A stretch of 64,000 bases of DNA from Wickerhamiella versatilis. Its lineage: Eukaryota. Both the position numbers and the translations under genes were made by a program. The notes beneath the pieces are model-generated. The model was not told the DNA's origin and searched no databases. It was given only the letters and a program-made list of their open reading frames with translations. The stretch lies in NCBI GenBank assembly GCA_030867685.1, contig JAQOWU010000001.1, positions 868,001 through 932,000 of the forward strand. The letters are read 5' to 3'. This document shows, one piece after another, positions 3,444 to 25,777 of this stretch (its first letter is position 1; every line of letters begins with the position of its first letter).

Positions 3444-4946
3444 ATGCATTCAGTCTCAGCCATCTCCCTGACAGTAGCTTTCCTGGCGGTTGCCGTGTTT
3501 GCCCACGGGCCCCAAGCCCCATATAGCCAGGACTTCACAGAAAATTATAACGTGCTCAAGTTTCTTGGAAATGGTGGGCCATATAATAATCGTCGTGGCC
3601 TAGGAATTAGCTTGGATGCACCTGAGGGTTGCTCAGTTGACCAGATTTCGTTTATCATGCGCCATGGTGAACGGTATCCAGATCCGGGCCCTCTCTCTGA
3701 ATTAGAAGCGGTATGGGGAAAACTGGAGAGCCGCAAAGGAAATTATATTAATGAACTCGAATTTCTTAATAAATGGGAGCCATATGTATACTCAGATAGT
3801 CCGTTTGTCGCCGAGGAGTCTACTGCCGGACCCTACGCAGGACTGCTCACTGGCTATCACGCCGGAAGCATCTACGCTCAGCGCTACGGCCACCTATGGA
3901 ATCGCCAATCCATCACCCCAGTATTCGCTTCAGGGAGTGAGCGTATTGTTGACACAGCACGTCGCTTCGTCGAGGGCTTCTTTGGCTATAACTTCTCAGC
4001 AGCCGCGATCAACATTATCCCAGAAGTTGCGAGCCAGGGAGCCAACACCCTGGTTACAATTTGCAATAATGCCTCCATAGAGCAGCCGGACAAGTCTGCG
4101 TGTTCAGGCAAAGGCGACTACCCGCCCTTCTACGCCCTTGCCAATAAATGGAACAAGAACTACGGTCTCAACCTTACGTGGTATGATATTTCTAACCTGT
4201 GCCTGTCTACCGCTTATGAACTCAACGTGCGTGGTGAGTCTCCGTGGGTGAAGGCCATCCCACAAGATGTGTGGGTTGCCTATGAGCACCGGTTGTCCTC
4301 CTCGTTTTGGTGCTCAAATGGCCCTGGATCTCCCACAGCTCTCGCAAGAGGATCTAACTGGGTAAATGCCACTCGCCAGGTGCTACTCGAGGGGCCTGAA
4401 AAATCATTGCCTCTAGTCTTTACTTTTGCTCATGAGACCGATATCGCACCAATCCTCGCTTTCCTCGGAATTGACGCCGCTCCAAATACCAACACCAGCC
4501 ATTTCCAGGCAGATGCTGGCTATCATCTCTCTGATGTTGTTCCCATGGGGAGCCGCCTTGTTCTCGAGCGTCTTGTTTGCACAACGAATCAGGATGGAGA
4601 TATTAATCCATATGCATTTGATGGCTCCAAAATCAGCCCAAACGTAACCAATGCGAACGGTGGAAAAAGCTATTACATACGTGCAATTTCCAACGACGCA
4701 GTTGTGCCCCTGAAAGAATGTCAGTCGGGGCCTGGTTACTCCTGCCCTCTCCAAGAGTACAGTGACTTTGTCGATCGTCGTCTAGCTGGACGCGAGTTCT
4801 CAAGAGTCTGCAATTTGACCGAGGGTGCACCGAGATACCTCGACTTCTTCTGGAACTACAACATAACCACCGGGCTCAACCGCATCAACGAAACTATTTC
4901 ATATCAGGCATATCTCCTCAACTACTTGGGTCAATCCATTTCTTAA
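3444..4946 (+). CDS. Secreted histidine acid phosphatase / phytase
   Basis: RHGERYP catalytic motif and C-terminal AHETD (HD position). Signal peptide MHSVSAISLTVAFLAVAVFA starts at ATG 3444; the ORF-track start at 3339 is TTG. Many N-X-S/T sequons. Confidence 0.93.
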   Translation: MHSVSAISLTVAFLAVAVFAHGPQAPYSQDFTENYNVLKFLGNGGPYNNRRGLGISLDAPEGCSVDQISFIMRHGERYPDPGPLSELEAVWGKLESRKGNYINELEFLNKWEPYVYSDSPFVAEESTAGPYAGLLTGYHAGSIYAQRYGHLWNRQSITPVFASGSERIVDTARRFVEGFFGYNFSAAAINIIPEVASQGANTLVTICNNASIEQPDKSACSGKGDYPPFYALANKWNKNYGLNLTWYDISNLCLSTAYELNVRGESPWVKAIPQDVWVAYEHRLSSSFWCSNGPGSPTALARGSNWVNATRQVLLEGPEKSLPLVFTFAHETDIAPILAFLGIDAAPNTNTSHFQADAGYHLSDVVPMGSRLVLERLVCTTNQDGDINPYAFDGSKISPNVTNANGGKSYYIRAISNDAVVPLKECQSGPGYSCPLQEYSDFVDRRLAGREFSRVCNLTEGAPRYLDFFWNYNITTGLNRINETISYQAYLLNYLGQSIS

Positions 4947-14257: not shown

Positions 14258-15997
14258 TTAACTTTGTTGAGAAAGCAATGGCGCATTTAGAAGTAAGCTC
14301 TCATTAGTGGTTGATTTAAGTAATTCAACAATAATATAGCTGCTCGCTAGTGGGTTCAGGTTGCTAGCGAGTAATGTCCGATTTGGCCCGAGGCCCCAAC
14401 CTAATGATCCCCAGGGCTGACCAACTATTCTGCTCATAACTTTAGGGAGAGGGATAGTTATCGTATTATCGATGCTTTCATAGTTCTGATTCACAATTCC
14501 CACCAGCATCTGACTCCCATGAATCCAGTACGCTATGTCTAGCATTGGGTAGCTAGTCAGCTTGATTGGAGATGGCTCCGAAGCTAACAGAAAAATAGAT
14601 ACAGGGGGAACAGCAACCATTCGAGCAAATTTGCTATAGGCCATTCTCAGTTCTGGGCTCGTTGGGAACACCCAACTCATAATTCCTTTTGCCCTATGGT
14701 TAAAGCTGAGACACATCATCGCCCAAGTCTCTTCGGGCGTTGGATCACGACTCCAGTACTGTTCGCCGTTGAAAGCTTGAAGCACGGCCCAGAGTGGTTT
14801 TGGAAATCCACCGACCCATTCCTGATATTTTGAAAATGTGTCAAGTCGATTGCTGACATCCCCCAATTCGCCAGCGCAATTGTCACAGCCACAATCACCA
14901 TAAGTGCTGTTGCATACTGTATTAAACTTTCTTGAAAAACTCACATTGGTTCCGATGGGATAGGCATCTTCCAATATGTAGTCAGCGCCGGATGAATATT
15001 CTTTGAAGTAGTAATTCTCACAGTTCAAGACAAGACCAGTTGGGTGGTAAGGATCTTCCTTCTTTAGTAGTTCGTATGCGGCATATGTACTGTTAAGGGG
15101 GTCCTGCACACCATCCGGCTCATCCGCTGTATACCAGCTTAGCAAGTTTGACCTGTCTCTGACATGAGGAATTTGCTCTCGTACCCAAGTTAGATTAGTA
15201 TACGACCAGCGCATATTGTACTGATACCACAGATTAGACCCATCTAGCCAGTCAAACAGAAAGTTCAGATCATCCCCGTCAAAGGCACAGCCAGGATTAA
15301 TTGCAGTTAGCCCCAGATCATGGTAAGCTGTGACATTCGCAGAACTATAATTCAGATATTGCCAACATCCTGTATAAAAACCGAAAGGTAGTAAAGGCTC
15401 AAATGCATAGTCAGTGGCATTATTAGCCACTAACATGCCACCGTGCAAATTGTCAATTTTTACCATGCTGCCAATGCGCTTTGTAGGTAAGTAAAGAAGC
15501 GACGCAGTAGTAGTAAAAGACTCTCTTAAATTAGCGTCCGAAACGAAACCACAAAGGGTGATCAGGTAAGGATCTAATCGTGGCTCCAGTCCAGTGAAGT
15601 TTATCTCTACTAGGTTGGTTGGAGAGTTTACTGAAATTTGTTCTCTCGCTAATGTAAGATTTGTCTCTTCGATAATGGCGTCGAATGAGAGCCTCACAGA
15701 TGCATTGCTAATGTTAAAGGGCCAAGGCTGACCGTGAATATGAGATAAAGTCGCATCGACCATCAGCTCACCAGTAAATTCATCACTGACATAGATACTA
15801 TGGCGTGTCTCTGCCCTGAAATAAAGCATTGGCTCATTTGAAAAGCGAGGAGGTTCGAATTGACCCCCAGGGTCAATATTTGGTGATCCAGATTCGTAAG
15901 GCTTGCCGCACCACCGCGGAAGCTCTACGACTTCTTCATTGTGTGTATATCCCCAAGATGTACCTAAAATTAAAGCCAGCTGAACTGTCGCTTTCAT
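14258..15997 (-). CDS. Secreted glycoside-hydrolase-like protein of unknown family
   Basis: Signal peptide MKATVQLALILGTSWG and many sequons. TIM-barrel GH-like motifs WYTADEPDG, DAYPIG, WAVLQAF, and Cys cluster YGDCGCDNC. Confidence 0.65.
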   Translation of the reverse strand: MKATVQLALILGTSWGYTHNEEVVELPRWCGKPYESGSPNIDPGGQFEPPRFSNEPMLYFRAETRHSIYVSDEFTGELMVDATLSHIHGQPWPFNISNASVRLSFDAIIEETNLTLAREQISVNSPTNLVEINFTGLEPRLDPYLITLCGFVSDANLRESFTTTASLLYLPTKRIGSMVKIDNLHGGMLVANNATDYAFEPLLPFGFYTGCWQYLNYSSANVTAYHDLGLTAINPGCAFDGDDLNFLFDWLDGSNLWYQYNMRWSYTNLTWVREQIPHVRDRSNLLSWYTADEPDGVQDPLNSTYAAYELLKKEDPYHPTGLVLNCENYYFKEYSSGADYILEDAYPIGTNVSFSRKFNTVCNSTYGDCGCDNCAGELGDVSNRLDTFSKYQEWVGGFPKPLWAVLQAFNGEQYWSRDPTPEETWAMMCLSFNHRAKGIMSWVFPTSPELRMAYSKFARMVAVPPVSIFLLASEPSPIKLTSYPMLDIAYWIHGSQMLVGIVNQNYESIDNTITIPLPKVMSRIVGQPWGSLGWGLGPNRTLLASNLNPLASSYIIVELLKSTTNESLLLNAPLLSQQS

Positions 15998-17424: not shown

Positions 17425-18389
17425 CGAGTCCGAGAGTTCCGACAACGGCTCCGAATCTTAAATATGTTAGTAACGGAATTTATTTATTTAGGCAATAAGT
17501 AGTCAGCAAGAGGGGTCCAGGCCAGACATGTTGGATCGAAGCCCGAAGTTTTCATCTAATCTTTGACAATGCATTAGTAATTCAATGTCCATGTGTACCC
17601 ATCCATGATATAGTAATATCTTATTGCTACCTGTATAGAAGTTGCCCTATTGTACTAGCTATTAATATGAACTACTCACTTAATAAACTATCTGCTTGAG
17701 CTAGGCAAACCAAGTGATCTACGTGTTGACATGTTGTAAGGATTCCCTCTCTAGGGAATTGTACGTATTTCAAGGTTCCACATAAAGATTGGTTCTAGCT
17801 TGTTGCCTAGGTTTACAAGTGCATACGTGTGCCGTGAAGTCTTACTAGTTGACCGTAACAGGTTAAGAAAAGCCCGAGATTGACCTGACAATAGGCTTTA
17901 GTAACAGGCGAGAGAACGGGATGTGAAAGCCCCTCTCAGATATTTCTTTAACCAAATCACTGGTTACTTACATAGTATGCCAAACGACTCCTCGTGCTTT
18001 TGTGTCTAATTGATGTTGGCAATACGAATAAGATTTTACAGTTTAATATATCATCTGGCCAGAGGTCGAAAATTTGCTCGAGCCATCTTAGCTAGTATAT
18101 CGGCTGTGTCAATGTCATCGACATAGTTGTTACTCTGGTTGACCAGGATAGCTGGAGAGGGCTCTATAACACTCAAATCAGACGCAAGTAATGCATAGGT
18201 CTTGTTATGGCGATCCGAGAAAGTAATACTAAGAAGCTATCACCCGGTCATCGTTCCACAGAGGTCTGACCGTATTCAGGGTAGCACTCTAGTGTATTTA
18301 AGAGCGTATACTATGAAATTTACGTGATCCATACCTTGAAGAAATCCATGCATCGCATCAGTAATCCATTTTTCTGTTTTTGACTTTAA

Positions 18390-18476
18390 TTTATCACCTT
18401 ATCAATCATCGGTGCTGATAAAGTACAAACAATGACCATTATTATTATATAAGTTGCGGAGCGGGTCGGGGTAACC
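18390..18476 (+). promoter_or_regulatory. Putative promoter elements of the amidohydrolase: GATA sites and CGG cluster
   Basis: TTATC 18391, CTTATC 18398, TGATAA 18416 and CGGAGCGGGTCGG 18457-18469, followed by TATAAA near 18488. Confidence 0.45.
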
Positions 18477-18529
18477 AAACTACTAGTATAAAGTCAGGTT
18501 GTCAGCAAGTTGTTTTAACTATATATCCC

Positions 18530-19690
18530 ATGATTAACTATCTTGAAGAGATAAAAAGTTGGCGCCACTGTCTTCATCAGCACCCTGAGCCCGGTTTTAA
18601 AGAAAATAATACCGCGGCATTTGTAGCGTCCAAGTTGCGTTCATTTGGGCTGGACCAAGTTGTTGAAGGCATAGGAGGAACAGGAGTAGTAGGTGTTCTT
18701 AAATCAGGTACTTCTACCCATTCAATCGCTCTTCGAGCCGATATGGATGCACTTTTACTGAACGAGGATCGCGCGGATTTGGCATATGCGTCTGTAAATA
18801 ATGGTGTCAAACACGGATGTGGACATGATGGTCATATAGCGATGCTTCTCGGTGCGGCAAAGACACTTGCCCTTGAAAAAAACTTTAATGGAACCGTCTA
18901 CTTTGTCTTTCAACCCGCTGAGGAATGGGGATGTGGTGCTGTGAAAATGATTGAAGATGGCCTGTTCCAGCGTTTCCCCATAGAAGAGATCTATGGGATC
19001 CATAATATGCCCTTGCTGGACATCGATACGTTTACTACAAGTGGTGGACCTGTAATGTCTGCAGAAGACAATTTTGAAATAATCCTTCATGGAATTGGGG
19101 GACATTCATCTAGACCTGAAGCGGGACATGAGGTAATGGTTGCCACTTGTGCTTTGGTACTCAGTCTTCAGACAGCCATTTCCCGTCGCGTCAGCCCTAT
19201 GGATCACGCAGTGCTTTCAGTTACAAACCTAACTTCAGATGGCACAAGAAATGTTCTTCCTAGCACGTCTCATATATATGGAGATGTTCGCTCATTTAGA
19301 GAAGAAGTCAGTCAGCTCATTGAAAGAGAAATTTTTACCATGGCAAATGGAATTTCATCCGCTTATGGCGTTACTGCAGAGATCAAGTATACACATGACT
19401 TCAAACCAACAGTGAATGATGAGGTACTTAGCTCCGAGGCTCTCGCTGCCGCTAAAGATGTGTATGGCCTTGAATCTGTGTCGAGACTCGAAGTACCATA
19501 TGCCGCATCAGAGGATTTTGCGCAGTATCTCACACATGTGCCTGGGTGCTTTGCATTTATCGGGAATGGGAGAGATAGCTATCCTTTACATCATCCTCGA
19601 TATGATTTTGCCGATGAAGCACTAGTTAAAGGTTCGAAATACTTTGTAGCTATTACCCGTCAAAGATTGAGTCTCCCACGTAGCGATTAA
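18530..19690 (+). CDS. M20D family amidohydrolase (hippurate hydrolase-like), bacterial type
   Basis: LHQHPE, ALRADMDAL, HGCGHDGH, FQPAEE, GIHNMP, SEDF, LHHPRYDF. Confidence 0.93.
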   Translation: MINYLEEIKSWRHCLHQHPEPGFKENNTAAFVASKLRSFGLDQVVEGIGGTGVVGVLKSGTSTHSIALRADMDALLLNEDRADLAYASVNNGVKHGCGHDGHIAMLLGAAKTLALEKNFNGTVYFVFQPAEEWGCGAVKMIEDGLFQRFPIEEIYGIHNMPLLDIDTFTTSGGPVMSAEDNFEIILHGIGGHSSRPEAGHEVMVATCALVLSLQTAISRRVSPMDHAVLSVTNLTSDGTRNVLPSTSHIYGDVRSFREEVSQLIEREIFTMANGISSAYGVTAEIKYTHDFKPTVNDEVLSSEALAAAKDVYGLESVSRLEVPYAASEDFAQYLTHVPGCFAFIGNGRDSYPLHHPRYDFADEALVKGSKYFVAITRQRLSLPRSD

Positions 19691-19707
19691 GATACCGTCA
19701 TATATCA

Positions 19708-20799
19708 TTATATAGTTGATGCTTCAGATCCCTCAGTTATGATTAGTGCTACCCGTGAGCCAACTTGGTTTAAGCCAAGGAAAGCACTGGCCGTATGATC
19801 GGACAAAAGTACTTCAAAAGCCGCCAAAGTTGCTGAACCACAGGGACCAGCATCTATTCCTTGACCAGCCAATTTTCTTGATGCTTCAATTGCCTGCTCA
19901 TCTGAGATTCGAACAGCTGCAGCGACATGCTTTTCTAAACTCGGCCACGCAATTGAAGAGACTGCACCACAGTTGAGCCCAAACATTCTGGTATATTCCG
20001 TTACGACACTAATGTTTGACCCAGAATTTAGGGAAGTCCACAAACAGGCAGCAGTTTCTGGCTCGACTGATATTATTTTGGCACCTTTTGTGGGTGGATA
20101 ATCTACAATAGCCTGGGCAAGGCTACCAACCCCAACTGGAACAATTACATGACTGGGATTTAACGCTGATAACTCATAGGATATCGTTGAGTAGCCTTTG
20201 ACAATCAGCCGCGGTACCTGCTCGTAACCCACCCAGGCTGTATCCTGGATCAGAAGAGTATCCTCGCTTGTGGTCGCGTGATATTGTGCAGCATAATTCA
20301 CAGCCTCATCATAACTCATATCCAGCTGCTCTACCTCAGCACCCTCTCTACGAATATGATCTATAGGCCCTTGAGCTACTGTAGCAGGAAGAAATATACG
20401 AGATTGAAGACCAACTTTTCTGGCAAACCATGCTACTGCCCGGCCATGATTTCCATCAGTCGTACAAATAAATGTAGGAGAGTTCTTGATAGAGGCCAGT
20501 TTCCGAAGTTCTGCTAATGTTGTTGAGCGTGCATCAAGATGCCAGTGTCTGCATAAATCTTGGAAGCATGCATATGACGCACCGAGTACCTTAAAAGCTG
20601 GAAGTCCAAATCTATCTGTTTCCAGCTTTGCAAAAAGCTCACCCTGAAATGAGACATTTGGAGATATTTTGATTTGTTCTGTGGGATGGTAACCTTCAAG
20701 AATTCTGCGGTGAAAATTCAGGACGGAATCATCGTAAGTTCCATTCAATCCTTCAGTAAACTTTTGATTAATGCATACGGGGCTGAAATTGCTCCTCAT
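19708..20799 (-). CDS. Diaminopropionate ammonia-lyase-like PLP enzyme (fold type II)
   Basis: KLETDRFGLPAFKVLGASYA (PLP lysine), TDGNHGRAVA, IQDTAWVGYE, VPVGVGSLA. Confidence 0.88.
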   Translation of the reverse strand: MRSNFSPVCINQKFTEGLNGTYDDSVLNFHRRILEGYHPTEQIKISPNVSFQGELFAKLETDRFGLPAFKVLGASYACFQDLCRHWHLDARSTTLAELRKLASIKNSPTFICTTDGNHGRAVAWFARKVGLQSRIFLPATVAQGPIDHIRREGAEVEQLDMSYDEAVNYAAQYHATTSEDTLLIQDTAWVGYEQVPRLIVKGYSTISYELSALNPSHVIVPVGVGSLAQAIVDYPPTKGAKIISVEPETAACLWTSLNSGSNISVVTEYTRMFGLNCGAVSSIAWPSLEKHVAAAVRISDEQAIEASRKLAGQGIDAGPCGSATLAAFEVLLSDHTASAFLGLNQVGSRVALIITEGSEASTI

Positions 20800-20926
20800 A
20801 ATTATGCGCGAACTTTCCTACAAATGGAAAGTGAAGCGACTTTATATCTTTTTCAGCAGAGATACCGGAGCGGCGCGGTCGGAGTAGATTGATCTATGCG
20901 CTGAGTAAGATGTCATCTTGGATGGC
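20800..20926. promoter_or_regulatory. 127-bp divergent promoter with four CGG triplets (candidate Zn2Cys6 site)
   Basis: CGG at 20866, 20871, 20876 and 20880 (CGGAGCGGCGCGGTCGG) between the divergent DAP lyase and Zn2Cys6 genes. Confidence 0.5.
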
Positions 20927-22660
20927 ATGAAAGAGCCGAGCCCAAGCACGTATTCTTCTGGTGCTATCCGTAGAATTCGCAATGGCGCTGCTTGTATCAG
21001 ATGTCGAAAAAATAAACGTCGCTGTGATGGCCAGAGACCTTGCAGTGCTTGCAAAAGAAATGATTATGAATGCAATTATAACTCTACTTTGAACCGCCCA
21101 GAAAATCGAAGTCGGAAGAAAGAGTTTGCTGGAACACAAGACTTAGTTGAAACACCAGTGAAGACTCAGACTCATGGGTCTAGCAACCAGGAACATCCTA
21201 TATTGGCCTTTACTAGGATAGGGATTGAGCTACCTTCTCATGGACGATGTGATCAGGGAGGGGAACCTTTGAAGGAAGAGTTAGCAGACGCAATATCAAG
21301 CTCGAAATCATTTCAAAGGCTTTTGGAGAGATTAGAGACAGCCAATATACCGAGAATCCAGCCTCCTTCTTTTAATTTAGGACTTGCCGGTGCGCAATAT
21401 CAGCTGACTGACAGTTCACTTGCAATCTCATCTTCTATTTCATTTGAGCAGCTTCAATTATTCAGTGGTGTTTATTTTGAGAAAATAAATCCTGTTTACG
21501 GTCTTGTTCGTCGAGAACAATTCGACTTCTTCGTTTCCTATATTTACGGACAACACGGAGATGATTCGGCAATTGCATCCAAGGAAATTGACAATTATAA
21601 TCCAGTTATTTGTGGGGTTGTCGCTCTTGGGTGTCTCTTTTCACGTAAAAACTATGAAGTCAGTGACGAGATCAGGGATATGATAGAAAGGAAGGTTCTT
21701 GCTATAACCCAAGAGCAGCTCGATAGTCCTCAGGCGACTGATTTAATTGAAGCTGATAGCTCAGGTGTTTTTTGTGTTATTTCTTGGATGCTGCGTACAA
21801 TATACTTGAGGTGCACTTCCTCCCCTCTCAGCACTTGGGTGGCATGTTGCCGGTCGGCGAACATAGCAAGTTTTGTAAAATTGAATGATGAGAGAAAATG
21901 GAGTTCGTTAAAACAAGATACAAATCACTTAAGACACCTTTTTTGGTCCCTGGAAATATTTAATACCTGGCTTTCCATAGAGATAGCACAGCCGAAGGCA
22001 AGCTTTCTTTATGTTACATGCCAGTACCCAATCGCTGTGGACGAAGAAGATGTGAACCCTGGACTGGTGGAATTATATGATAAGACAAAGGATGCATTTG
22101 TCACGGGAGATATCGAACCGGAGCAATGCTACAGTGCTCTTTATAGTTTACTGAGATTCAAGTCTTCTCATCCTGTAATCTCCATGGACCATGGATATCT
22201 GGCGATTATCTTATTCCGCCGCATAAAAGTGTTTAATATGAGCGAGACCACCTTAAGTGGTCTGATGAAAACAGCATTGGAGTCACTTACTAGTTGTGAA
22301 GAGCTTGCTAGAAGGGGAGAACCTTGGTGGCAAACGATAAATGTTCCTTTCCACCTCTTAACAATGGTAATCATGGCCGAAAAGCCAAGATTCACCCTGG
22401 AAATTCCAAACATCCTTGAAAGTATGGTTTCAGTAGGGCGAGAGTTTTGCACGAAAGAAGTCTCTAATGCAATATGCATCGCCCGAGAACTCATCAATAT
22501 TTTGAGGATGCTTAAAGAGAAAGAGATGCTAGCCCTGTCTAGAGGTATATCAAAAGCAGATGAAGCGTTGAGCCGAGACAAGCCTGAAACAGCATCCGAA
22601 AACCTCGATCCAAGCCTGCTACTTAATGAGCTACTTATGATGAATGAATTTTATGCCTAG
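20927..22660 (+). CDS. Zn2Cys6 transcription factor with fungal-specific TF domain
   Basis: ACIRCRKNKRRCDGQRPCSACKRNDYEC, YFEKINPVYG, RHLFW. First ATG at 20927. Confidence 0.92.
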   Translation: MKEPSPSTYSSGAIRRIRNGAACIRCRKNKRRCDGQRPCSACKRNDYECNYNSTLNRPENRSRKKEFAGTQDLVETPVKTQTHGSSNQEHPILAFTRIGIELPSHGRCDQGGEPLKEELADAISSSKSFQRLLERLETANIPRIQPPSFNLGLAGAQYQLTDSSLAISSSISFEQLQLFSGVYFEKINPVYGLVRREQFDFFVSYIYGQHGDDSAIASKEIDNYNPVICGVVALGCLFSRKNYEVSDEIRDMIERKVLAITQEQLDSPQATDLIEADSSGVFCVISWMLRTIYLRCTSSPLSTWVACCRSANIASFVKLNDERKWSSLKQDTNHLRHLFWSLEIFNTWLSIEIAQPKASFLYVTCQYPIAVDEEDVNPGLVELYDKTKDAFVTGDIEPEQCYSALYSLLRFKSSHPVISMDHGYLAIILFRRIKVFNMSETTLSGLMKTALESLTSCEELARRGEPWWQTINVPFHLLTMVIMAEKPRFTLEIPNILESMVSVGREFCTKEVSNAICIARELINILRMLKEKEMLALSRGISKADEALSRDKPETASENLDPSLLLNELLMMNEFYA

Positions 22661-23180
22661 GTGTGCCTCAGATATAGTCTTATGCATGGTGTTTGTGCTA
22701 GATAGATAAGCTATATGGTGATTATTTGCATTTATTGTTTCTTATTATGTTCTGCTAGACACCTCTTAATCTTAGTTGCTCTCTAAAAACCTGTAGCTCG
22801 AGTATTCGACAATATTAAAGACGAGAAAAGAGGGAAATTAGCGAGTTCAACGTGATACACAATCAAGGACACATGACAAAAATACGCGAAAATACTACGA
22901 GACAGAATTATTTTGATTTCACTTCAAAGGAAGAAGCAGGAGGCAGCCTAGAAATGCCAAATGGGCTGTCTCTGTTCTTAACTACGATGATGTTATCATT
23001 AGTTGTAAATGAACTTAAACAGGAGTTAGCACTATCGGAATCACTATAACAATAACTTACTTTTACTTAGTTAATTTAAACCCAAGTATGAGAGATGAGG
23101 CAAGTAACGTATAAAAAATCGACTTCAAAACCTAATAGATATACTTGTATGAGGTTTTAGGAAAGTTGGGACAAAGCTGC

Positions 23181-24560
23181 TCACTTTTCGGACTGCAAGT
23201 CGGCATAAACCTCGTCCAATGACTTGGCTAACGCGTCAATGATTTTCTGTAGATCATCCGACCCAATGATAAGAGGTGGGCACATGGCAAGTATATCTGC
23301 TCCTAACGCACGCAGAAGAACACCATGCTTCTGCACTGCCTCGTTGACTCTTTGAGCAACTTTTAGTTCGGGAGGAAAATGCTTACGGGATTCCTTGTCG
23401 GCAACGAACTCAAGGGCTGCCACCAGGCCAATGCCACGAACTTCGCCTACCAGAGGATGATTTTCCAGCTTATGGAGCCCTTCCAAAAAAGCTGGTGAAA
23501 CTCTCTTTACATGTTCAACGATATCCAGCTCATCATACATACGAAGAGCTTCCAGGGCTACCGCAGCAGCTACAGGATGACCACTATAGGTATAACCATG
23601 TCCAAATCCACCTAGCTCATTGCTTTGGCGTGCAATTGCTTGGTAAATCTGGTCACTAACAATCAGTGCTGAGATTGGCAGGAAAGCAGCAGAGAGTGCC
23701 TTCGCGCAAGTCATCATATCCGGCTTGATATGCTCGGTCTCAGATCCCCAGTAGTAACCTGTACGTCCAAAGCCACAGATGACTTCATCTGCAATCATCA
23801 AGATATCGTACTTGCGAAGTACCTCCTGGATTTTGGGGAAATAGCCGGTGGGGGGGACTATTACGCCACCAGAACCCATTACTGGCTCGGCAATAAATGC
23901 ACCGACCGTATCCGGGCCTTCCTCGAGAACTTTCTGCTCCAGTTCCGTTGCCAAGCGAGTAGAAAACTGTTCTTCCGTTTCTCCCGGCAAGCCTTCTTGA
24001 TAAAGGTGTGGACAGCGTACGTGAATCACGTCCACCCGCGACTCACCCCAGCCTTTGTGCATACCTGAGAGTCCACTGAGGTTGGCAGCAGCAAGCGTGG
24101 TGCCATGATAGCTACGCTCACGAGCTATCATGCGAGTCTTTTGTGGCTTCCCAATAGCTGAGTGATAGTAACGCACAAGCTTAACCGCAGTATCCACAGC
24201 CTCTGACCCCGAAGTCTGCAAAAGTACTTTATCCAACCCAGGAGGTGCATGTTTTACAAGCTCTTCTGAGAGTTCCACCACTGGGCCATGACTACGATGA
24301 GCAAATGTGTGCTGATAGGGCAATTTGTTGAGTTGCTTGTAGGCAGCATCAGCCAAGCGTGGTTGGCTGAATCCCAAGCTGGCACACCATAATCCGGACA
24401 TACCCTCAAGATAACGATGACCATGCTCATCGATAACATAAACACCATCGCCTTTCTCTATAACCATTGGTCCCACCTTCTCATGTTGACGCATATTGGT
24501 CTGTGGATGAACATGATACGAGATATCACGCTGAGCTTGCGTCGAAAATTTATTGGACAT
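23181..24560 (-). CDS. Class III omega-aminotransferase (omega-amino acid/putrescine:pyruvate type), bacterial type
   Basis: YLEGMSGLWCASLG, SGSEAVD, YHG, FIAEPVMGSGG, IADEVICGFGRTG, PDMMTCAKALS, HGYTYSGHP. Confidence 0.93.
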   Translation of the reverse strand: MSNKFSTQAQRDISYHVHPQTNMRQHEKVGPMVIEKGDGVYVIDEHGHRYLEGMSGLWCASLGFSQPRLADAAYKQLNKLPYQHTFAHRSHGPVVELSEELVKHAPPGLDKVLLQTSGSEAVDTAVKLVRYYHSAIGKPQKTRMIARERSYHGTTLAAANLSGLSGMHKGWGESRVDVIHVRCPHLYQEGLPGETEEQFSTRLATELEQKVLEEGPDTVGAFIAEPVMGSGGVIVPPTGYFPKIQEVLRKYDILMIADEVICGFGRTGYYWGSETEHIKPDMMTCAKALSAAFLPISALIVSDQIYQAIARQSNELGGFGHGYTYSGHPVAAAVALEALRMYDELDIVEHVKRVSPAFLEGLHKLENHPLVGEVRGIGLVAALEFVADKESRKHFPPELKVAQRVNEAVQKHGVLLRALGADILAMCPPLIIGSDDLQKIIDALAKSLDEVYADLQSEK

Positions 24561-25777
24561 GATAAATGCTTATGACACGTACGTGGAAATGCAACACTTA
24601 TAAAGCGCGGGTAATGATTAAAAAGCGATACCCGATCAGGGTTTGCACTTTAACCGCGCATCATTGGATGACAAACCTACATCTTACTGGTGCCATGTGA
24701 GATATGGTGTTGGTTTAACTTCTATAAAAGTGATTTTTATTCATAGGAATGACTTCATATTTCAGACTTGAGTAAGCTAGACGCTGTGATTTTAGCCTAT
24801 CGTTTGATGAAAAAAACGAGGTTCGTCGCTAACATGTGGCTACAACAGTATATATCGGAACCTGGCAACAGAGAAGTCACAAAATTGTGCCACAAAATTG
24901 TCCCAAGTATTGTTTTAGCAGTATTCTCTAGCACTGAGATCTTTCCAACCATGCTAAAGCCATTTCTGTGCACTAGAATCTTCATATCAACGCCCTCACA
25001 TAATGCTAGCATCACATAATTGTGTAAGATTCTAAATTCCCCACCACCATCTGATCTACAAGTAATGTGGAGACCTGCACCACAAGAAAAACAGCCTGGC
25101 AGATATAAAATTTCTAATCAATCCTGCACACACATTCGAGATAACAAGTTTAAAGAATGCGGAATCGATTCATCAAGTACCCTCGAGAGAAAAAGTTTCT
25201 TTCTGTGTGTGATGCCAAGTTTTCAACGATACATATCCCAAAGTTCACCCGATTTACAATATTTGATTCTCTAGATACAGTTTCGATGTGATAAAGTAAT
25301 ATAGACATCACCAGCCCACATTATAAAGCTGAGGCTTTATTTAAAGTCTTATTTACTTGGTATTTGGTTATGAGATCAATAAAATACCTGCTTTGTTCCA
25401 GCCGGGTGAGTCGTATTGCAACCACACTGCCACAGAAGCCACATGTCTTTCAACGGATCTTCCTCTTGCATAGAAACTTATATCTTGGTCTCTATTGCGG
25501 CAATGAAATTCTTTGAAACAGTAGCAGAAAATTGTGGTAAGTACTTGTACGAGCGGAATCATATTTTCGGATTTTGATAAACTTGATAGTTGCTAGTAGC
25601 CTAATTATTTCAGAAAAGTATAAAGAGCTAGCATAGCATAGTATAGCATAGCCCATATAGACTACGTCGCACATATCTTGTAGTTGGAAATTACAATAGT
25701 TTTAAACGATTGCACATTAATTACGTATGATTTGATACCCAGGTGTTAGTAAGTCAATATCTCGCTTGCAACCTGGT

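Follow-up and report, generated by a model that had tools for sequence, protein, structure and literature searches.

Among the systems closest to the locus described here is the YgeY/YgeX pair of the 2,8-dioxopurine (reductive urate) pathway of Escherichia coli, in which an M20-family hydrolase releases 2,3-diaminopropionate (DAP) for a lyase that forms pyruvate. The accessible text on this pair (PMC12507026; bioRxiv 10.1101/2025.04.24.650524) likewise has albizziin yielding pyruvate with YgeY plus YgeX. We analysed a locus of the yeast Wickerhamiella versatilis in which an M20 amidohydrolase gene similarly adjoins a gene for a protein like DAP ammonia-lyase (EC 4.3.1.15), next to the gene of a Zn2Cys6 transcription factor. 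The locus lies in a 64-kb stretch of DNA (G000:C1:868001-932000, referred to as the window), and the genome searched comprised 9.88 Mb in 8 contigs. The yeast M20 differs from YgeY in subfamily, and none of the upstream urate genes (ygfK, ssnA, hyuA, ygeW) had a counterpart among the families of the 32 window proteins. A rhizobial operon of lrp, DAP lyase, carbamoylase and M20 genes is like the yeast locus in its M20 clade, its adjacent DAP lyase and its dedicated regulator, whereas the yeast has a lyase of another lineage, convergent genes, a Zn2Cys6 instead of an Lrp regulator, and no carbamoylase in the cluster.

In a number of fungi (Aspergillus, Sarocladium, Mycena, Rhodofomes), a DAP-lyase-like (PALP) domain of the yeast lyase's own fungal clade is fused to an M20 domain. 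These fusions are single polypeptides with another M20 type, whereas the lyase of the yeast is free-standing and clusters with proteins of smut fungi. Mosaic bacterial-fungal pathways are already known in the Wickerhamiella/Starmerella clade, namely ENB1 plus the ent operon and, as cited in the accessible text of PMC13376923, a stepwise thiamine salvage cluster. As in the present cluster, bacterial and fungal genes became joined into one function in these cases, but they begin with a transferred operon, whereas here a bacterial-type pairing appears to have been re-created from two separate donors, together with a candidate cis-element and factor. Literature searches, mostly without subscription journals, gave no description of the cluster, of a DAP pathway in yeasts or other fungi, or of the operon in rhizobia, and nothing relevant on Rdr1 direct-repeat sites or the U. 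maydis gene.

Four intact open reading frames (ORFs) make up the locus: the M20 amidohydrolase (18530-19690, + strand, 386 aa), the DAP ammonia-lyase-like protein (19708-20799, - strand, 363 aa), the Zn2Cys6 factor (20927-22660, + strand, 577 aa) and a class III aminotransferase (23181-24560, - strand, 459 aa), with Pfam families Peptidase_M20, PALP, Zn_clus and Aminotran_3, respectively. These families agree with a preliminary description of the locus, as do the stops of the M20 and lyase genes, which converge 17 bases apart, and the starts of the lyase and factor genes, which diverge 127 bases apart. The factor and aminotransferase genes converge with 520 bases between them.

We propose, with a probability of roughly 0.6, that hydrolase, lyase and factor form one inducible unit that regulates itself, that first deacylates a DAP derivative and then acts on it by elimination, and that was assembled from two donors. 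The hydrolase would take the N-acyl group off N-acyl-2,3-diaminopropionate, after which the pyridoxal phosphate (PLP) lyase would turn the freed DAP into pyruvate and two ammonia, a breakdown that might supply nitrogen or clear a toxic amino acid. The factor would bind direct CGG-N2 repeats before the hydrolase gene and in the lyase/factor gap, and would thereby switch on both enzymes and itself. The two enzyme genes, the hydrolase from Alphaproteobacteria and the lyase from fungi, would have been brought together within the yeast lineage or in a fungal intermediate, with the aminotransferase as an unrelated transfer. We infer an N-acyl or N-carbamoyl DAP as substrate. The compounds suggested in the preliminary description (albizziine, beta-ODAP and N-acetyl-DAP) are conjectural candidates; judged by family, albizziine would rather call for a carbamoylase than for an acylase-type M20. 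If true, this would be a compact eukaryotic case of a bacterial gene pairing re-created from different donors under a fungal regulator, with candidate sites known. It would bear on the way in which the host gains control over transferred genes in these yeasts, and point to a function for the widespread rhizobial operon and the fungal DAP-lyase-like proteins, on which the literature searches gave no functional study.

The pairing was traced in bacterial neighbourhoods of M20 relatives (the best 80 of 373 loci, 5 kb radius). At 48-60% identity to the yeast M20, 36 of 39 loci held a DAP lyase (one cut by a contig end), 35 an Lrp regulator and 29 a hydantoinase/carbamoylase-family gene (one a remnant), while all three were absent from the 41 loci at 41-47% identity. 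The rhizobial partner lyases are 27-36% identical to the yeast lyase, and the rhizobial partner clears the DAP-lyase cut-off. Seen from the lyase side, an M20 gene lay near its relatives in 18/80 genome loci and 25/80 metagenome loci; the metagenome scan yielded no locus above 45% identity, and therefore no fungal lyase neighbourhood was seen. PALP-M20 fusions accounted for 8 of 26 long lyase relatives (picked by the analyst from the 150 best matches), four of the eight being named fungal proteins or clusters. In two further proteins (P0517 and P0523), an M24 (creatinase/prolidase-like) domain is fused to the DAP-lyase-like domain; ectoine hydrolase is an M24 protein, and these fusions hint that the substrate in some bacteria could be a cyclic derivative of DAP.

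The yeast M20 scored 312.5 bits against the NCBIfam amidohydrolase family TIGR01891, above the cut-off of 153.75, and 22.4 bits against the YgeY profile, below the cut-off of 321. The preliminary description had called M20 enzymes and DAP lyases neighbours in bacteria, as in ygeX-ygeY; the linkage is thus borne out, but not the likeness to that subfamily. The second NCBIfam relative of the protein is an N-acetyl-diaminobutanoate deacetylase, and its nearest solved structure is YxeP, which we take to be an N-acetylcysteine deacetylase. Residues C97, H99, E131/E132, H158 and H354 (Cys/His/Glu/His/His) are present as a putative metal site, in which they presumably act as ligands. M20 has a single match in the genome; its named top matches are all bacterial, mostly from Rhizobiales, at 56-61% identity. 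In a 52-row tree (rows for this and the lyase tree were chosen by the analyst from search matches), it fell on a long branch inside an alphaproteobacterial, DAP-lyase-adjacent clade, with a support of 99 in the Shimodaira-Hasegawa-like approximate likelihood ratio test (SH-aLRT). By these sequence comparisons, the M20 is an aminoacylase/YxeP-like enzyme of alphaproteobacterial origin.

The best NCBIfam match of the lyase was PRK08206 (258.6 bits, under the cut-off of 276), and the protein likewise fell under the cut-off of TIGR01747 (194 against 274 bits). Since these curated cut-offs were missed, it is filed as DAP-lyase-like on its sequence. Its K70, D115, Y163 and D186 align with K77, D120, Y168 and D189 of the E. 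coli DAP lyase, where we assume active-site roles for Y168 and D189. K77 is the PLP lysine and D120 the catalytic aspartate in the accessible text of PMC4000059. The predicted model had a mean confidence (predicted local distance difference test, pLDDT) of 94, and in a fold search with it ranks 1-11 were all DAP lyases (template-modelling (TM) score 0.80-0.87), ahead of threonine/serine dehydratases by ten orders of magnitude. The lyase is about 30% identical to solved DAP lyases, and its catalytic residues and modelled fold fit such an enzyme.

One strong match to the lyase exists in the genome, and its best named matches elsewhere were fungal first, then actinobacterial. A quick tree of 81 rows placed it within a fungal clade (98), together with Ustilaginomycotina proteins (SH-aLRT 100), with two unnamed proteins as its sister (support 96); the fungal clade itself sits among Actinobacteria. 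These placements indicate that the lyase descends from fungal proteins and not directly from bacterial ones. The preliminary description had regarded all enzymes as bacterial in type, which holds for the M20, of alphaproteobacterial placement, and for the aminotransferase, but not for the lyase, which nests among fungal proteins. One group of the yeast lyase with 16 rhizobial operon lyases was rejected (approximately unbiased test, p-AU 8.75e-5); the bacterial operon lyase is thus not the ancestor of the yeast lyase, and the pair would therefore have been reassembled. Horizontal transfer of a single operon was rejected as well, with different nearest relatives, a rejected common origin of the lyases and convergent genes. 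The same test did not reject a placement of the yeast lyase with the fusion clade that contains Pezizomycotina (p-AU 0.13), which still allows the published Pezizomycotina label for the lyase donor, although the tree favours Ustilaginomycotina. The lyase orthogroup is given for 83% of sampled Pezizomycotina, 1/8 Wickerhamiella/Starmerella species and 4% of other yeasts in the accessible part of PMC13376923, where the lyase family has one more model in the published strain, gene 02672, with weak expression.

The Zn_clus domain of the factor carries six cysteines at residues 23-49, and its first Atlas match was 'Protein RDR1 family' (0.99); four paralogs of 28-56% identity occur in the genome. 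CGG repeats are established Zn2Cys6 sites, and predicted sites of this kind lie on the + strand at 18457..18469 (CGG-N2-CGG-N2-CGG, 60 bases before the M20 start) and at 20866..20882 (four CGG, in the 127-base gap, 66 bases from the lyase start and 44 from the factor start). These provide the only two matches of CGG-N2-CGG-N2-CGG in the window (18457 and 20866), where 0.09 were expected. Because the pattern had been picked after inspection, a spacing-free control was run, which sought at least three same-strand CGG within 20 bases in 130-base promoters. This counted three CGG for the hydrolase, four for the lyase/factor gap, one for the aminotransferase and two for the upstream transporter, and only one of 182 other promoters holds three. 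From the sequence, the factor gene thus lies inside the cluster and CGG repeats stand before hydrolase, lyase and factor, though not before the aminotransferase, as in a Zn2Cys6 cluster whose factor would bind them. Together with the M20-lyase linkage, the shared array upholds the logic of a hydrolase and a DAP lyase under a fungal regulator.

Four-CGG arrays also adjoin two of the four paralogous factors, at loci not used for defining the array: beside the 56% paralog, one separates a permease gene from that of a MetC-like PLP lyase, and beside the 36% paralog, one precedes a major facilitator superfamily (MFS) transporter gene. No array was found in the neighbourhoods of the other two paralogs. 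At the 56% paralog (G000:C8:5500-15400, L183), the amino-acid permease is divergent from the lyase across the array, and two CGG occur just before the paralog itself; this mini-cluster is likely a second amino-acid breakdown unit. At the 36% paralog (G000:C3:195500-205400, L185), tandem L-idonate 5-dehydrogenase-like and gluconate 5-dehydrogenase genes diverge from the factor gene, and the flanks of the downstream MFS gene's array most resemble the lyase/factor gap. Both of the more distant paralogs have a nitroreductase-family gene as neighbour (L184 571-1569 and L186 6528-7541), the two genes being similar, and CCGATCGG palindromes are present in the L184 promoters.

A wider pattern has five matches in the genome, of which exactly four fit the extended motif CGGAGCGG-N2-CGG: at the hydrolase, in the lyase/factor gap, at the MFS gene of the 36% paralog and at a beta-alanine-synthase-like gene on contig C7. 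The latter site lies 68 bases upstream of the gene (match G000:C7:450843-452000), which belongs to the family of the third rhizobial operon gene, the carbamoylase; the array was not found in the promoter of a second beta-alanine-synthase-like gene, on C1. A 17-base pattern common to the promoters of the hydrolase and the C7 carbamoylase occurs exactly at those two sites and, with one mismatch, nowhere; it was built from these promoters and is not counted. It is conceivable, if doubtful, that the rhizobial three-enzyme set was rebuilt from an alphaproteobacterial acylase, a basidiomycete-derived lyase and the yeast's own C7 carbamoylase, under one RDR1-like factor and the shared CGGAGCGG-N2-CGG, in which case the yeast would use both N-acyl-DAP and albizziine. 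Membership of the C7 gene is uncertain because it is labelled native and expressed at 55-87 transcripts per million (TPM) in both media in the accessible supplement of PMC13376923, and because its array is common to a divergent acetyltransferase gene. The gene stands between the two acetyltransferases of a glycolipid-type cluster (G000:C7:442500-462300; L300, L301), which also holds glycosyltransferase-like genes, a P450 and an ATP-binding cassette (ABC) transporter.

The window ORFs run in reverse order of annotated genes 04101-04127 in the accessible part of Supplementary Data 6 of PMC13376923 (2026). There, 04116 (the aminotransferase) and 04117 (the M20) are listed as transferred from bacteria and 04118 (the lyase, K01751) as transferred from Pezizomycotina, and the factor has no own entry among models 04100-04129. 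The accessible main text makes no mention of diaminopropionate. For model 04117, the implied length is about 2,690 bases and the G+C 0.4308; hydrolase and factor together have a G+C of 0.4321, and the hydrolase by itself has 0.4453. Because length and G+C fit both genes together, this model apparently joins the two into one gene that spans the antisense lyase (window 18530-22660), although its listed midpoint fits such a merger inexactly; a merged annotation of this kind would hide the cluster. A true spliced M20-factor fusion was rejected: neither a canonical yeast donor site close to the end of the M20 gene nor a branch point in 19301-21200 was present, going by the motifs that we assume for yeasts.

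A number of observations weigh against the proposed unit. The lyase misses the PRK08206 cut-off, the 39 linked loci are mostly from Rhizobiaceae and non-independent (two from one genome), and the surroundings of the cluster are full of unrelated transferred genes. The array pattern was chosen after the hydrolase and lyase/factor promoters had been seen, and genome-wide it is not over-represented, with 27 matches (by our own count 22 distinct sites, 14 of them outside long ORFs) against 40 for the reversed control; moreover, a paralogous factor could be the actual array binder. A single contig of one public run carries a one-base deletion at factor codon 44 (window 21057), in the zinc cluster, which reflects either a defective allele or a mistake in the assembly. 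In the accessible data of PMC13376923, lyase (1.7-10.7 TPM) and merged model 04117 (4.7-18 TPM) are low, and neither they nor the aminotransferase are differential between YNB and YPD media. Across the six published samples, the lyase also co-varies with unrelated neighbours (e.g., GPD1, r 0.97), and expression correlation is uninformative for that reason.

Of the alternatives to a unit acting on a DAP derivative, the one that survives best, though we consider it unlikely, accepts a real and co-regulated unit with another substrate: an N-acetylated beta-substituted alanine (e.g., S-substituted cysteine, D-serine or N-methyl-DAP) that would be deacetylated and then beta-eliminated. The missed PRK08206 cut-off, the roughly 30% identity to solved enzymes and the presumed N-acetylcysteine deacetylase role of YxeP would suit such a substrate, and literature searches gave no tested member of the lyase clade or the rhizobial operon. 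However, the four DAP-lyase active-site residues are kept, the fold search sets DAP lyases far ahead of the dehydratases, the second M20 relative deacetylates N-acetyl-diaminobutanoate, and the lyase partner in rhizobia scores above the DAP-lyase cut-off.

Less probable again is that four independently acquired or native genes became neighbours by chance, as transfers piled up in a chromosome-end domain. The accessible text of PMC13376923 indeed assigns the cluster genes to an End domain in which xenologs build up, its table labels many window genes as bacterial transfers, and three different donors are involved. On the other hand, the genome's only M20 of its type and only DAP lyase sit 17 bases apart, this M20 falls in the one clade tied to DAP lyases, and the rare array is found in both promoters.

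The preliminary description had also counted the aminotransferase as a cluster member. This protein passes the cut-off of PRK06105 (NCBIfam) and is 69-70% identical to Pseudomonas proteins. Within 6 kb of its bacterial relatives (81 loci: the best 80 of 589 plus one), no DAP lyase was found, while a PotA-like ABC ATPase occurred in 34/81 loci and an M20 of the same type in 2/81. Ectoine catabolism couples a deacetylase to a class III aminotransferase, the yeast gene is adjacent to the unit with its order conserved in related strains, and such an aminotransferase lies within 5 kb in 9/39 rhizobial loci. Nonetheless, a four-gene unit whose aminotransferase acts on DAP, a related diamine or the formed pyruvate is the least credible alternative, as the nine rhizobial aminotransferases are only 33-43% identical to it (the one tested being of another subfamily, AptA), no relative's locus holds a DAP lyase, the promoter has one CGG and no array, and expression is 45-104 TPM against 1.7-10.7 for the lyase (accessible supplement of PMC13376923). 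The aminotransferase probably does not belong to the unit and was most likely acquired by a separate transfer, for the use of amines.

One contig of a public run matches 18254-25177 in collinear order and differs from it at 315 letters. All four proteins have recorded variants, which lie on contigs of the same three lengths, with 11-15 differing positions for the lyase, 13 for the M20, 16-17 for the aminotransferase and 2-27 for the factor. In the factor/aminotransferase gap, a 93-base piece of a dispersed repeat (window 22954-23047) matches another contig in three public runs. Upstream of the cluster, window 14258-15997 encodes a 579-residue protein without Pfam or NCBIfam match, labelled a Pezizomycotina transfer in the accessible table of PMC13376923. 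Window 28937-62405 is dense in probable bacterial transfers, including TetR, adenine deaminase, DUF218 and tyrosine phosphatase genes, a sugar-phosphate isomerase, a hydroxyaspartate lyase and two Gfo/Idh/MocA oxidoreductases.

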